Assembly: GCA_963708025.1 (NCBI GenBank)
Contig: CAVPSB010000010.1
Span: 128,001 to 192,000, forward strand
Reading direction: 5' to 3'
DNA length: 64,000 bases
Source: an uncultured Candidatus Rokubacteria bacterium
Lineage (GTDB): Bacteria > Methylomirabilota > Methylomirabilia > Rokubacteriales > DASRDR01
Part shown: positions 14,676 to 51,044 of the stretch, in pieces
How positions within the stretch are numbered: position 1 is the first letter of the stretch
Layout: the number at the start of each line of letters is the position of its first letter
Translations under genes and position numbers: made by a program
Notes under the pieces: model-generated
Told to the model about the DNA's origin: nothing
What the model saw: the letters and a program-made list of their open reading frames with translations, nothing else
Database searches by the model: none

Positions 14676-15125
14676 ATGCGGGCCCTGCTCCAGCGGGTGA
14701 TCGAAGCCTCGGTCGAGGCCGATGATCGGGTGATCGGCAGAATCGACCGGGGGGTGGTCACCCTGCTCGGGGTTGCGGACGGCGACGGACCGTCGGACAG
14801 CCGGTACCTCTCCGAGAAGATCCTCAACCTCCGCATCTTCGACGACGACCACGGCAAGCTGAACCACTCGCTGGTGACGACGGGCGGGGCCTGCCTGCTC
14901 GTCTCGCAGTTCACTCTGCTCGCGAACACGGGTCGCGGCCGCCGGCCAGACTTCCTGGGCGCCGCCCGGCACGAGGTCGCAGAGCCGCTGGTGCGCGACA
15001 TGGCGGTGCGACTGCGCGAGGGCGGGGTGCCGGTGGTGGAGGGCCGATTCGGGGCCCGGATGATCGTGCGCCTCGCGAACGACGGGCCGGTGACGATCTG
15101 GCTCGATTCGCGCGAGCGGGCATGA
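14676..15125 (+). CDS. dtd: D-aminoacyl-tRNA deacylase
   Basis: MRALLQRV, NLRIF, SQFTL, NDGPVT; TG-g-TATACT extended -10 at 14652-14657. Confidence 0.96.
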   Translation: MRALLQRVIEASVEADDRVIGRIDRGVVTLLGVADGDGPSDSRYLSEKILNLRIFDDDHGKLNHSLVTTGGACLLVSQFTLLANTGRGRRPDFLGAARHEVAEPLVRDMAVRLREGGVPVVEGRFGARMIVRLANDGPVTIWLDSRERA

Positions 15126-16024
15126 GGGGACATGCCCCGGCACCGGACCTCGTGGACGAGTTTCTCCAGAGTCTCCGGGTGGAGGACGGCGCCTCACCCC
15201 TGACCGTGAGCGCGTACCGGCGCGATCTCCGCCGGCTCGCCGCCTTCCTCGTCGCCCGCCACCGCGCCCTCGAGACGGCGGGTCCCGCCGACCTGGTGGC
15301 GCACCTGGGCGCGCTTCACGCCCGCGGGCTCGGGCCGCGCACCCGCGCCCGCCAGATCGCCGCCATCCGCGGCCTCTACCGCTTCGCCCGCGCCGCCGGC
15401 CGCATTGCCGACGATCCGGCCGCCCTGCTCGAGAGCCCGCGGCTGCCGCGCCGGCTCCCCCGCGCCCTCTCGCGGGCCGACGCCCAGGCGCTGGTCGAGG
15501 CCCCCGGGGGTGACGGTCCCCGCAGCCTGCGTGACCGCGCCATCCTGGAATTGCTGTACGGATCCGGGCTCCGGGCGTCCGAGATCGTCGGGCTGCGGCC
15601 CGGCGACCTCGACCTCCACGGGCAGTTCCTCGTCTGCCACGGCAAGGGCTCCCGCCAGCGGCTGGTGCCCGTCGGCGGCGAGGCGCGCAAGGCGCTGCGC
15701 GCGTATCTCGACCACGCGCGGCCGGTCCTCGTCCGCCGGCGGGAGCCCGACACGCTCTTCGTCAACCATCGGGGCCGGCCGCTGTCCCGGCAGGGGCTGT
15801 GGGGCCTCGTCCGCCGCTACGCCGGTCGCCTGGGGCTGCCCCGGGCGTTTCCGCACGCCCTGCGGCACTCCTTCGCGAGCCACCTGCTCGAGGGCGGCGC
15901 CGACCTGCGCTCCGTGCAGGCGCTGCTCGGCCACGCCGACATCGGGACGACCGAGGTATACACGCACCTGCCAACGGACGCGGTCCGGCGGATGTATCGC
16001 CGGTTTCACCCGAGGGCGGAGTAG
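15122..16024 (+). CDS. xerD: Tyrosine recombinase XerD
   Basis: RDRAILELLYGSGLRASE, HALRHSFASHLLEGGADLRSVQALLGHADIGTTEVYTH, C-terminal HPRA. Confidence 0.85.
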   Translation: MRGHAPAPDLVDEFLQSLRVEDGASPLTVSAYRRDLRRLAAFLVARHRALETAGPADLVAHLGALHARGLGPRTRARQIAAIRGLYRFARAAGRIADDPAALLESPRLPRRLPRALSRADAQALVEAPGGDGPRSLRDRAILELLYGSGLRASEIVGLRPGDLDLHGQFLVCHGKGSRQRLVPVGGEARKALRAYLDHARPVLVRRREPDTLFVNHRGRPLSRQGLWGLVRRYAGRLGLPRAFPHALRHSFASHLLEGGADLRSVQALLGHADIGTTEVYTHLPTDAVRRMYRRFHPRAE

Positions 16025-16252
16025 TGCCGTGCCGATAACCGTCGCATCCCGTCGTCCTCGGTCGTCGCCCATCCTCGGCGTATGCGGCATACGCCTGCGG
16101 TGGGCGACTCCCTGCGTCCTGGGGCTGCTCGGTTCTCGGCCCGCCTTGTGGCACTGTGACCCGAGCGATGCGGTCCGGCGGATGTATCGCCGGTTCCACC
16201 CACGGGCCGAGTGATGCGGATGTGCCGGCGGATCCACCCGAGGGCGACCTGA
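15977..16252 (+). repeat. Three copies of the xerD 3' end (15977-16024, 16167-16214, 16217-16252)
   Basis: Copies 1 and 2 both encode DAVRRMYRRFHPRAE*; copy 3 encodes RMCRRIHPRAT*. Confidence 0.92.
16023..16155 (+). repeat. Family A element, copy 3
   Basis: agtgcc...ggcact ends, gccgataaccg/cggttctcggc stem, gtcgtcctc...ggcgtatgcggcatacgcc...tgcgtcct core. Confidence 0.9.
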
Positions 16253-17988
16253 TGGTCGTGCGCCGCGCGACGTACCCCCAGGTGGAGCCGCGGGCGGGGG
16301 ACCTGATGACGCCGGCGGTGGCGGTGGCGCCGCGGAGGCTGACCCTGGCGGCGGCCGCCGTGCTCGCCCGCCGCCGCCGCGCGCGCTTCGTGGTCGCGCG
16401 GCTCGGATCCGGGTGGGGCGCGGTGACACGCCAGGTCCTCGAGCGCGCGCTGGCACTCGACCGGCGGCTCGGCCGGGCTCCGCTCGACCTGGTCCTCTGG
16501 GGCGCGCCCGTGGTTTCGGCCGCGACTCCCGAGGTGACGGTGCGCCGGGAGCTGGGACCGGCCACGCCGTTCGTGGTGGTATTCGGCGGCGGCGGGACGC
16601 CGCTGGGGGTAGTGTCGGGGGACATGGGGGCGCGACGGGCCCTCCCGCGCTCGGCGGTCGAGGCCCTGGGCCGGCTCGACCCGGGGACCCTCGAGCTCCT
16701 GCGAGCCGCCGGCCGGCTCGGGCCGGAGTCCGGCCAGCCGGTCGCCGCCGTCGGCGGGATCGTCCGCGACCTGCTGCTGGGACGCCTGACCGCGCCGCCC
16801 CGCGACCTCGACGTGGCCGTCGAGGGGGATGGGCGCCTCCTGGCCCGGCAGCTGGCCCGGGCCCTCGGCGGCCGAGTGCGGCAGCACGACGCCTTCCTGA
16901 CCGCGACGGTGACGCTCGCCGACGGGCGGAGGGTGGACGTCGTGACCGCGCGGCGGGAAGGGTACCGGCGACCGGGCGCGCTCCCCATCGTGGAGCCCGC
17001 CACGCTGGAGGAGGATTTGGGGCGCCGCGACTTCTCCATCAATGCCCTCGCGGTCCGCCTCGATGGCGACGCCTGGGGGCAGGTCCTGGATCCAGTGGGC
17101 GGGCTGGCGGACCTCGCGGCGCGGCGCCTCCGTGTGCTCCACCCGCTCTCGTTCGTGGAGGACCCGACCCGGATCTTCCGGGCGGCGCGCTTCGCGGCAC
17201 GACTCGGGTTCCGCCTGGAGACGGCGACCCGGCGGCTGCTGGTGGGGGCGGCGCCGCTCCCCGTGTACGAGGCGCTCTCCGGCGATCGGCTGATGGCCGA
17301 ACTGGACGCCATCCTCGACGAGCCGGCCCCGGCCGCCGTGCTGGCGGCGCTGAGCCGGCTGGGCGCCTTCCGGCTCGTCTTGCCCGGCTACCGGCGCTCG
17401 CCCGGGGCCGACACCGCCCTGGCCCGGGCGGCCGAGGCCGCGCGGGCCGCGCCATTGCCCCGCGACGTCGAAGCCGCGCTCGTCCTGCTCGCGCTGGGAG
17501 CCCACCTGCGGGGGGAGGCGGCCGAGGCCTGGGTCGCGCGCTGGGGCGTCCCCGCGCCGATGCGGGCGGCGATCGCCCGGGCTCGGGAGGAGGCGCCGGC
17601 GCTGGGGCGCCGGCTCGCCCGGGCCGCCGACGCGGGGGAGGCGTACGCGGTCCTGCGCGGCGTGCCGGTGCTGACCGCCGCGTGGGCCCATGCACGGGCC
17701 CGCGAGGCCCGCGGCCGCCGGCACGTCCTCGACTATCTCGGGGCGTGGCGCGCCCTGCCGTCGCTCCTGAACGGCGAGGACCTGAAGGCCCTCGGGCTGG
17801 CGCCTGGTCCGCTCTTCGGCCGGCTGCTGGCGGGTGTCCGGATGGCCCAGGTCACCGGGCGCGTGCGCACCCAGGCCGAGGCCGCGGCCTGGGTGCGGCG
17901 GACCCTGGTCGGGGCGAGCGGGGCGGGGACGGGCGGCGCGACTAACGGATCGAGTCCGGATCCGAAAGGAGGAGGCGTGTGGCGATGA
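16252..17988 (+). CDS. CCA-adding/poly(A) polymerase family nucleotidyltransferase with a degenerate CBS-like N-terminus
   Basis: [51 protein letters not shown] overlaps TGA of xerD-tail copy 3. Confidence 0.88.
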
Positions 17989-27343: not shown

Positions 27344-27462
27344 CGGGGCGAGAAGCGTCGCCCAGCGTCGTCCTCGGTCGTCGCCGATCCTCGGCGTACT
27401 CGGAGTACGCCTGTGGTCGGCGACTCCCTGCGTCCTAGCTGGGCTCGCTTCTCGGCCCGCTA
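27341..27462 (+). repeat. Family A element, copy 5
   Basis: tagcggggcgagaagcg/cgcttctcggcccgcta outer stem that includes the rapZ stop; conserved core. Confidence 0.9.
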
Positions 27463-29991: not shown

Positions 29992-30225
29992 CGGGCGGGG
30001 CCGATGAGCGTCGCAACGTCGATCTCGGTCGGGACGCGCTCGGCCTGCGGCCTCGCGTCCGTCCCGACCTATGGTCGTCCTCGGTCGTCGCCCATCCTCG
30101 GCGTATGCGGCAGTACGCCTGCGGTCGGCGACTCCCTGCGTCTGTCGGACGGGCTTCGGCCTGTGGGCGCTGCTCGCTCCTCGGCCCCGCCCGAGAGCTT
30201 CGCTTCCGTGCCACGACTCTAACGG
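29992..30225 (+). repeat. Family A element, copy 6
   Basis: Starts at the base after TGA; outer stem plus all three internal modules; tail gagagctt...ccacgactct resembles copy 1. Confidence 0.9.
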
Positions 30226-35789: not shown

Positions 35790-36017
35790 CGGGCGGGGCC
35801 GATGAGCGTCGCATCGCGTCGTCCTCCATCTCGGCCGGGACGCGCTCGGCCTGCGGCCTCGCGTCCGTCCCGACCTCTGGGGTCGTCGCCGATCCTCGGC
35901 GTACTCGGAGTACGCCTCCGGTCGGCGACTCCCTGCGTCCTAGCGCTGCTCGCTCCTCGGCCCCGCCCCCAGGGACGGGACTCGTCTGCCATGACTTTGG
36001 CGCTCCAGGGAAGCTAG
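35790..36017 (+). repeat. Family A element, copy 7
   Basis: CTAG at 35786-35789 and 36014-36017; outer stem as in copy 1; tail ccatgactttggcg shared with copy 1. Confidence 0.9.
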
Positions 36018-50918: not shown

Positions 50919-51044
50919 CGTCGCGGGGCGACACCCGTCGCCGCGGGTCGTCCTCGGGCCGGGCCGGTCCTCGGCGTATGCGGCATACGCCTCCGGCCGG
51001 CCCGGCCCTGCGTCCTACCGCGGCTCGGGTCTCGCCCCGCGACG
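50919..51044 (+). repeat. Family A element, copy 8 (most diverged stems, same fold)
   Basis: cgtcgcggggcgacacccg/cgggtctcgccccgcgacg outer stem with the invariant gtcgtcctc / tgcgtccta loop. Confidence 0.9.

Follow-up and report, generated by a model that had tools for sequence, protein, structure and literature searches.

The 3′ end of a xerD-type gene, here called its tail, is present three times in front of the next gene, cca, in DNA of an uncultured soil Rokubacteria-like bacterium (genome G000). The whole stretch analyzed, called the window, is 64,000 nt long and equals G000:C10:128001-192000. As judged from related loci, the junction contains three generations of the xerD 3′ end, namely a tail in use (copy 1), a displaced tail (copy 2) and a decayed one (copy 3). 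A hairpin repeat of a dispersed family, named family A, lies between copies 1 and 2. We favor, with a probability of about 0.5, that the locus is a mosaic of two natural xerD tail alleles that recombined within a 26-nt identical core. Feature coordinates are collected in Table 1, and C-numbers denote contigs of G000, L-numbers loci and X-numbers public sequencing runs.

Silent differences between two tails, and a third relic

Copies 1 and 2 are identical at 41 of 48 nt, and each encodes DAVRRMYRRFHPRAE followed by a stop. Their seven differences are all silent (GAC/GAT, TTT/TTC, CCG/CCA, AGG/CGG, GCG/GCC and, in two letters, TAG/TGA), falling on codon positions 3, 3, 3, 1, 3, 2 and 3. An earlier note on this DNA, referred to as the original prediction, had described this pattern, and direct reading, a repeat search and a script all reproduce it. 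When seven substitutions were made at random, the peptide and a stop were kept at a rate of 1.5e-5 (200,000 trials), or 1e-5 with GC-weighted changes.

The differences are clustered, as one is within the first 29 nt and six are within the last 19. Between them lies the 26-nt core, which is identical to 16170-16195 and occurs in the genome in these two copies only. What follows the core in copy 1, its right part (T of TTT, then CAC CCG AGG GCG GAG TAG), has no second copy in G000 at ≤3 mismatches.

Copy 3 (16217-16252) reads RMCRRIHPRAT and a stop, and is identical to the last 36 nt of copy 1 at 26 positions. Among 16.3 million genome positions on both strands, only five match as well, three of which are the copies themselves; copy 3 is a true decayed tail copy, as originally described. 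No further copy of it was found in G000 at up to 3-5 mismatches. Copy 3 runs into the next gene, its TGA (16250-16252) sharing one letter with that gene's ATG (16252-16254) in TGATG. With the end of copy 2 it makes up a pair of 38-nt tandem units (16179-16216 and 16217-16254), and TGATG closes each of them.

A mini open reading frame (ORF) of 12 codons (MRMCRRIHPRAT and a stop) runs from the TGATG after copy 2 to the TGATG at cca. It could serve as a relay for translational coupling, linking the former xerD stop to cca. The Shine-Dalgarno-like GAGGG within copy 3 has a GGAGG at the equivalent position in L031.

Close relatives carry an empty site

No same-genus genome was present among the 21 genomes of the family in our collection, and the nearest loci are four metagenome contigs (L031-L034). 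At stage 0, represented by L033 (85% amino-acid identity) and L032 (83%), the tail ends in HPRAE or HPRAD and a stop, and TGATGG leads straight into cca. At stage 1, represented by L031 and L034 (89-90%), the tail and TGATG are followed by a 38-nt unit and then by cca. This unit matches copy 3 at 26 of 38 positions by manual count, and its 12-codon ORF has the same length and place. Because L031 and L034 carry the matching unit, copy 3 is an old relic common to these lineages. Stage 2, with the 190-nt block within the tail, was found in this genome only.

Logan contigs of four public runs were aligned on window positions 15600-16600; no public run contained more than 0.30 of the sampled words. 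Two contigs from different studies, X1 record 6 (551 nt) and X2 record 17 (409 nt), jump exactly from 15979 to 16170 and skip 190 nt, with 27 letters fitting both sides of the joint according to the aligner. They are ~96% identical to the window, with 20 differences in 528 aligned letters for X1 and 14 in 409 for X2. In their single tail, the core is followed by TTC CAC CCG CGA GCC GAG TGA TG, and then comes copy 3, unchanged. Compared with copy 2, only 16202 (A>G) and 16205 (G>A) are changed. Over the 21 nt from TTT to TAG, this tail differs from copy 2 at 2 positions and from copy 1 at 6. The third base of the first codon in X1 and X2 is ambiguous in the alignment tables and was put on the GAC side by the aligner; the other relatives shown in full have GAC or GAT-free codons.

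Because the xerD body of X1 and X2 runs directly into a copy-2-type tail, copy 2 is the tail that works in close relatives, and we take it as the resident, recently working one here. While the flanks of the block diverge from close relatives by 3-4%, the last seven codons of copy 1 are about as divergent as those of another genus.

These alignments bear on several earlier claims. The original prediction had suggested aligning xerD-cca junctions of relatives, and the alignment separates a coupled single tail (L032 and L033) from a tail plus copy 3 (L031, L034, X1 and X2). Copy 3 had been proposed as the ancestral, translationally coupled end; it is indeed the oldest relic and retains TGATG and the ribosome-binding-like GAGGG. 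That the tail was replaced twice is borne out in part, as the series of relatives shows two nested events, but the first could equally be a plain 38-nt tandem duplication. Likewise, coding selection on both tails is supported in that a copy-2-type tail is the single working tail of X1 and X2, but the two tails were probably selected in different lineages.

In L008, L011 and other loci of genus g5, the xerD-cca spacers are 55-58 nt long and show a weak likeness to their own tails. The match is 22/36 in L008 (0 of 500 shuffles as good) and 20/36 in L011 (8 of 500). A far older tail, displaced with a 37-nt period, may survive in the g5 spacer.

The inserted block and its filler

The 190-nt block, with a register ambiguous by 26-27 nt, consists of the recoded last seven codons with the TAG stop, the ~120-nt hairpin repeat and 22 unique nt, after which copy 2 begins. 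The 142-nt cargo between copies 1 and 2 holds no gene and no integrase. The 190-nt unit was not found elsewhere in G000, in the genome_contigs sequences or in 40 other genomes, including all 20 others of the family, metagenome contigs having been scanned once and with protein only. Neither the filler nor the junction of tail 1 with the hairpin has another copy in G000 at up to 3-5 mismatches, and genome_contigs yielded no match to a degenerate tail-TAG-hairpin pattern or to the exact filler.

The element between the copies had been described as a structured element of family A. It does belong to the dispersed family A repeat, but the family consensus ends near 16144, leaving the 22 nt of 16145-16166 as non-family sequence. 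By blastn, the xerD hairpin copy and C16:38042-38159 share 98.3% identity over 118 nt. The predicted fold of the xerD copy has −68.8 kcal/mol with a z of −3.25. Eight nucleotides of the filler extend the basal stem. In the predicted fold, TGGCACTG of the filler pairs with TAGTGCCG; the xerD stop codon is part of the latter and is therefore placed in the base of the hairpin stem.

The last 7 nt of the filler together with GATGCGG resemble the copy 2/copy 3 junction CCGAGTGATGCGG, a likeness seen by eye and not statistically secure. A reading of the filler as a relic of a tail end was rejected, as a match of ~12 of 22 nt with one gap, including a shared 7-mer ACCCGAG, is insignificant given the freedom of alignment.

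Family A sits behind stop codons but does not carry tails

In the 8.17-Mb assembly, family A gives 275 blastn matches and 238 nhmmer matches. Further copies in the window are at 27349-27460, 30074-30142, 35868-35963 and 50929-51040, and copies are present in further genera of the same family and order. The repeat is a long hairpin with 38 predicted pairs, 21 of which show compensatory double changes among 57 distinct copies. The outer stems co-vary between subfamilies (GCCGATGAGCG/CGCTCCTCGGC, GCCGATAACC/GGTTCTCGGC and GCCGATACCC/GGGTCTCGGC), as do the terminal inverted repeats, with GGGCGGGGCCGA at one end of the element and the complementary TCGGCCCCGCCC at the other. The conserved U-G pairs make the element strand-specific.

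Family A is polar and normally lies 0-7 nt behind stop codons. Of the 136 near-full copies, 118 have the end of a ≥150-codon frame ≤60 nt from their 5′ edge, and in 95 this end falls within −7 to 0 nt of the element. The stops of these 118 frames are TAG in 68, TGA in 44 and TAA in 6, against a crude genome-wide background (6927 gene ends) of 37% TAG and 58.5% TGA. Many copies have (G/C)TAG directly before the palindrome and CGTC inside, and others have TGA or nothing. In one subfamily (G000 C19:185076, C13:447739, C17:35140 and others), a second conserved module of ~50 nt follows (ending in GAGAACTTGACTCATCTGCCATGACTTTGGCGCTTCAAGGAATCTAG), with a TTGACT motif inside and CTAG at its end; together with the left TAG, the composite looks (C)TAG-bounded.

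The original prediction had taken the hairpin for an integrative element that carries a replacement tail. When 250-nt left and right flanks were aligned for the 136 near-full copies, two scored above the null (99th percentile 30), the xerD locus with 67 and C14:376372 with 89. The latter was rejected as a tail duplication, being two adjacent paralogous response-regulator genes. Because a duplicated tail thus accompanies only 1 of 136 near-full copies, that at xerD, family A is not a general tail-carrying element. The proposed scan for displaced tails at other family A elements likewise came back empty for the remaining 135.

Other marks of mobility were searched for as well. No fixed-length target duplication emerged from comparing 36-nt left with 51-nt right flanks, as the longest shared word did not exceed that of random pairings, while isolated copies have flank duplications of 3, 11 or 48 nt. 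No Y1 transposase/RAYT (PF01797) was detected in G000 (99.67% complete), in a search whose control matched 6 of 14 known genomes. Together with the lack of an integrase, these results speak against the integrative-element claim.

Family A members also lie in the xerD-cca spacer of three other genera (L003 = G005, L005 = G002 and L006 = G001), in the opposite orientation. At L005 and L006, only TGA or GTGA (3-4 nt) is repeated on the two sides of the hairpin, and L003 looks likewise by eye. The xerD-cca junction has therefore been hit repeatedly.

Within G000, C32:275677 and L190 (C16:38042-38162) have hairpins at TGATG overlaps with both neighboring genes intact, and the flanking duplications are 11 nt (ACGCGTGATGC) at C32:275677 and 3 nt (TGA) at C16:38162. 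Two filled/empty pairs were found. At C32:217076 compared with C5, the hairpin lies in an 11-nt TGA..ATG spacer and the tail is unchanged. At C33:18266 compared with C4, TGA became TAG and three silent changes occurred in the last five codons; the 6 mismatches in the last 18 nt, against a 7.3% background, are only suggestive.

A proposed recombination between tail alleles and the competing explanations

The differences between the tails cluster, the right part of copy 1 has no internal source, and X1 and X2 present an empty site. For these reasons we infer that copies 1 and 2 are mosaics, reciprocal to each other, of two natural alleles. In copy 1, a foreign right part (TTT...TAG) would follow the resident GAC and core, and in copy 2 the resident right part (TTC...TGA) would follow GAT and core. 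One reciprocal exchange in the 26-nt core would give this product if the partner were tail-bearing DNA of a diverged relative, either circular or invading ‘ends-in’. Alternatively, the same product would result if a ready-made filled allele were imported via two crossovers in the cores. Since each allele would have worked in its own lineage, the silent-only differences would be ordinary allelic differences. The hairpin repeat would be a passenger or a later arrival, not the agent.

At the preceding stage 1, xerD would keep the upstream tail, and copy 3 would stay as a decaying mini-ORF with a ribosome-binding motif and TGATG for cca. An insertion at an overlapping stop and start would survive only if the xerD end is complete and the cca start is kept, so duplicated tails would pile up here. 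The earlier claim that the newest tail came with the hairpin and from outside agrees with the last 21 nt of copy 1, which at 6 differences are too diverged for a fresh local copy.

A natural donor-type allele with GAT and TTT CAC CCG AGG may be represented by X19 record 13 (122 nt, 86% identical). Silent changes fall at 15973, 15976, 15979 (C>T, which makes GAT), 15985 and 15991, and from 15992 to 16022 no difference is listed. In X19 record 14, 41 letters did not align.

Several observations weigh against recombination of two alleles. The clean stretch of X19 record 13 is exactly 31 nt, which we take to be the word length of those Logan contigs, so a graph artefact is possible, and two further differences fall within the core. 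No donor was found in G000 or genome_contigs, and we know of no source for a 190-nt circle or ‘ends-in’ fragment. The hairpin, at 98.3% identity to another G000 copy, suits local transposition better than import with a diverged tail. The 12 nt identical in copies 1 and 3 (CACCCGAGGGCG) are such that local conversion could account for 3 of the 7 differences. Finally, 16145-16169 is without coverage in the four runs, none of whose contigs bridges the filled site, and the filled structure is known from the assembly alone, which has a contamination of 8.18%.

A local duplication of the tail, followed by separate insertion of a hairpin behind the new stop codon, is a possible but doubtful alternative. 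The duplication would arise by slippage between the nearly identical 7-mers GACGCGG (the tail start) and GATGCGG (TGATG plus CGG) or from a staggered break. The head of the element would supply TAG, a short conversion from copy 3 would supply CCG AGG GCG, and the junction would supply GAT, leaving one or two silent changes to chance. The earlier step at this locus was after all a plain 38-nt tandem repeat, and tandem tail duplications exist at other loci. The filler meets copy 2 at CCGAG(C)GATGCGG, which is similar to the CCGAG(T)GATGCGG where copy 2 meets copy 3. The 12 nt shared with copy 3, the close C16 hairpin copy, the habit of the family to sit behind stop codons, and the small duplications at other TGATG-junction hairpins (C16:38162 and C32:275677) also fit. 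However, the tails are 14.6% divergent, yet relatives diverged by 3-4% lack the block. The last 21 nt of copy 1 would require three silent sense changes and a stop change where, by our own estimate, ~0.4-1 is expected. Conversion from copy 3 would require exchange in a sequence only 72% similar, and a filler unlike any tail beside a coding-perfect copy 2 would mean uneven decay. For an old block that relatives had lost, decay of copy 2 would be expected, and the chance of an all-silent outcome would be 1.5e-5 to about 4e-3 (partly our own estimate).

It is unlikely that the 190-nt unit (spare tail, stop, hairpin and spacer) is a self-mobile, gene-less mini-cassette that homes to the xerD 3′ end, with its own tail copy as attachment site and with a recombinase acting in trans, or host recombination, to move it. 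Such a cassette would account for the direct repeats, whose core is identical and whose arms have diverged, for the precise empty site of relatives, and for the reciprocal GAC/GAT and TTT/TTC pattern, as expected of circle integration. Hairpins of the same family at the same junction in three other genera, and a second stack of tail, TGATG and hairpin with mostly silent differences at C12:260612 (see below), could be added. However, 135 of 136 near-full family copies have no duplicated tail, and the reversed element of the other genera is flanked by a duplication of just 3-4 nt. The unit was not found a second time in G000 or genome_contigs, xerD itself is the sole recombinase within or next to the block, and no Y1 transposase was detected in the genome.

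An assembly artefact, in which xerD tails of two co-assembled strains were joined through the repeated hairpin, is highly improbable, even though the contamination level, the near-duplicate contigs C33 and C4 (about 93-95%), the stretch 16145-16169 left uncovered in all four runs, and a repeat of 238 copies would all permit it. The junctions of tail 1 with the hairpin and of the filler with copy 2 are unique and would have to exist in reads for any assembler. Since the filler-copy 2 junction is unique, copy 2 would exist behind some hairpin even if the path through the repeat was wrong. Moreover, a private outer stem pairs TAGTGCC with GGCACTG across the two sides of the hairpin, which argues for one molecule with both flanks. 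Recombination between two tail alleles remains our preferred account.

Genome context and the xerD-cca gene pair

The G000 assembly comprises 8.17 Mb in 49 contigs at 71% G+C, with a completeness of 99.67% and a contamination of 8.18%. None of the conclusions depends on the unpublished genome G038. The xerD product matches the Pfam families Phage_integrase (E 3.4e-43) and, with its N-terminal SAM-like part, Phage_int_SAM_1 (E 5.4e-18). On these domains it is a XerD-type tyrosine recombinase, putatively XerD rather than XerC. The order xerD then cca is kept in 27 of 29 related loci. A scan of the whole window at Rfam gathering thresholds gave no match, and a promoter/terminator consensus scan of 15800-16400 found none.

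The C>T that gives GAT in copy 2 creates an ATG (16168) in frame with cca, and the frame is open through copies 2 and 3. The longest cca ORF would begin 28 codons upstream (GTG 16156 or ATG 16168). This upstream start is probably not used, because the GAGGG motif would serve the ATG at 16252.

Table 1 Positions of features at the xerD-cca junction, numbered from the first letter of the window
Feature	Position	Strand	Basis
xerD-type tyrosine recombinase gene, 300 aa, with copy 1 at its end	15122..16024	+	ORF and Pfam
Copy 1, tail in use, DAVRRMYRRFHPRAE, stop TAG	15977..16024	+	Sequence, repeat search, script
26-nt core identical to 16170-16195, proposed exchange site	15980..16005	+	Two copies only in genome
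190-nt block, absent in close relatives, register ambiguous by 26-27 nt	15980..16169	+	X1/X2 joint 15979>16170 (skips 190)
Right part of copy 1, foreign-looking	16006..16024	+	Divergence from relatives, genome search
Family A hairpin repeat of about 120 nt (238 copies in genome)	16026..16144	+	blastn, nhmmer, fold, covariation
22-nt filler, unique in genome	16145..16166	+	Genome search, genome_contigs search, fold pairing
Copy 2, displaced tail, stop TGA, orthologous to close relatives' working tail	16167..16214	+	Sequence, script, X1/X2 contigs
12-codon mini-ORF, TGATG after copy 2 to TGATG at cca, contains copy 3	16214..16252	+	Sequence
GAGGG, Shine-Dalgarno-like, 7 nt before cca ATG, within copy 3, putative function	16240..16244	+	Sequence reading
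cca, CCA-adding/poly(A) polymerase family protein, N-terminal extension	16252..17988	+	ORF; Pfam PolyA_pol E 2.9e-22

Duplicated gene ends elsewhere in the genome

Displaced tails were searched genome-wide by taking 10,870 crude gene ends and seeking ≥34/48 identity to the own tail within 3 kb downstream. Matches were obtained for 86 ends, and for none with a reversed-query null. They sort into 49 paralogues or long duplications, 7 repeats and 30 ‘headless’ cases, several of the last being from spurious frames. The xerD case is the only one with an identical peptide and at least 5 differences.

Three of the headless cases are clear. In L189 (C12:259300-261700), a hydantoinase-B-like gene has its tail at C12:260565-260612, and its last ~22 codons are copied 111 nt downstream. 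Here the tail, TGATG and a C/G-run hairpin are stacked twice, as at xerD but with a different hairpin. The two tails are 41/48 identical with an identical left part; of the 7 differences, 5 are silent and 2 combine into a single L>V change. Relatives provide no usable orthologue of C12:260612.

At C12:62204 (C12:62170-62445), a stretch of ~95 nt with the last 10 codons of a gene, TGATG and a G-run hairpin recurs 164 nt further downstream. At C2:181145 (C2:181050-181860), direct repeats of ~100 nt surround a 656-nt insert; they take in the last part of an ABC ATPase gene and the overlap of this gene with the following one (ATGCTTGA). The insert presumably encodes a HicB/HicA-like pair. Duplicated ends around inserted DNA at these three junctions count in favor of the proposed recombination at xerD.

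Near-duplicate contigs also occur in the assembly, C33:17400-19000 against C4:41700-43250 (about 93%) and C32:216962 against C5:4924-5511 (83%). They look like a second related strain or species, which fits the 8.18% contamination.

Implications and comparison with known systems

The locus is a small, datable fossil record in which each of three stages is seen in nature. A housekeeping gene that overlaps the next start can evidently accept insertions, its end being duplicated or replaced and the old end left as a downstream leader. The junction would also be direct sequence evidence of very short-patch exchange between diverged, uncultured soil Rokubacteria-like lineages, a group for which we know of no experimental work on recombination. 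Silent-only differences mimic selection on non-coding DNA, and they would be explained here without a new function.

A broader proposal is that a hairpin plus a synonymously recoded gene tail is a real class of gene-less mobile DNA, with the xerD block and C12:260612 as two members. Such units would spread between related genomes with the spare tail as homing arm, and accumulate at stop/start overlaps. We regard this as rather unlikely, but if the combination were general, it would be a new, minimal kind of mobile unit. A literature search on REP/RAYT, Rokubacteria repeats, homology-facilitated illegitimate recombination, att sites in protein genes and C-terminal displacement found neither this hairpin family nor spare-tail mini-cassettes, which may nevertheless be in print.

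Some integrative elements (integrative and conjugative elements, genomic islands) insert in the 3′ end of a gene, with a replacement end in attP. The xerD block is like such att-type elements in its flanking direct repeats (48 nt with the 26-nt identical core) and diverged arms, in a gene completed by the incoming sequence, and in the precise empty site of relatives. It is unlike them in having no integrase, a cargo of just 142 nt, a unit that does not recur and a repeat family usually free of tail duplication.

In homology-facilitated illegitimate recombination, reported by de Vries and Wackernagel, a short identity is said to anchor foreign DNA. The xerD locus shares the short identity anchor, a microhomology (GAYGCGG) at the other junction and a small foreign-looking insertion. 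However, its product is a duplication with a reciprocal mosaic, which would not come from a linear fragment anchored once and needs a circle, an ends-in fragment or a template switch. Replication slippage would fit the end of copy 2 and copy 3, as head-to-tail 38-nt units each ending in TGATG, but not the newer step, where 142 nt are inserted between copies that are more diverged, and more exclusively at silent positions, than a fresh duplication would be. Compared with miniature inverted-repeat transposable elements, family A has the terminal inverted repeats, but a fixed-length target-site duplication was not found.

C-terminal displacement arrays occur at rhs, cdiA and type VI secretion system effector loci (PMC5361080). 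There, headless former 3′ ends are stacked behind a full gene, as at xerD, and recombination brings in new ends and pushes old ones downstream, with the homologous upstream part as anchor. The ends at rhs and cdiA encode different toxins with immunity genes under diversifying selection, whereas those of xerD encode the same 15 residues of a housekeeping recombinase. Copies 1 and 2 share an identical peptide with no gene between them, the cargo is a 120-nt hairpin repeat, and an exchange of ends has no evident benefit.

Family A in turn resembles REP, REPIN and BIME sequences (PMC3733652). REP-type repeats lie near the 3′ ends of upstream ORFs, at <20 bp. Both kinds are high-copy, dispersed, GC-rich imperfect palindromes near the upstream ORF 3′ end, between co-directional or convergent genes, and in both the G-U pairs suggest action as transcribed RNA. 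Many family A copies have an xTAG head, which may answer to the conserved GTAG (or CGTC) tag at one end of REP sequences. Unlike REP/REPIN, family A has a unit of about 120 nt rather than 20-40, its genome yielded no RAYT/Y1 gene, and TAG is the stop in about half of the copies that have a gene end nearby. Both kinds of sequence at the xerD-cca junction are known from elsewhere, as gene ends displaced in recombination and as REP-like repeats that follow stop codons.

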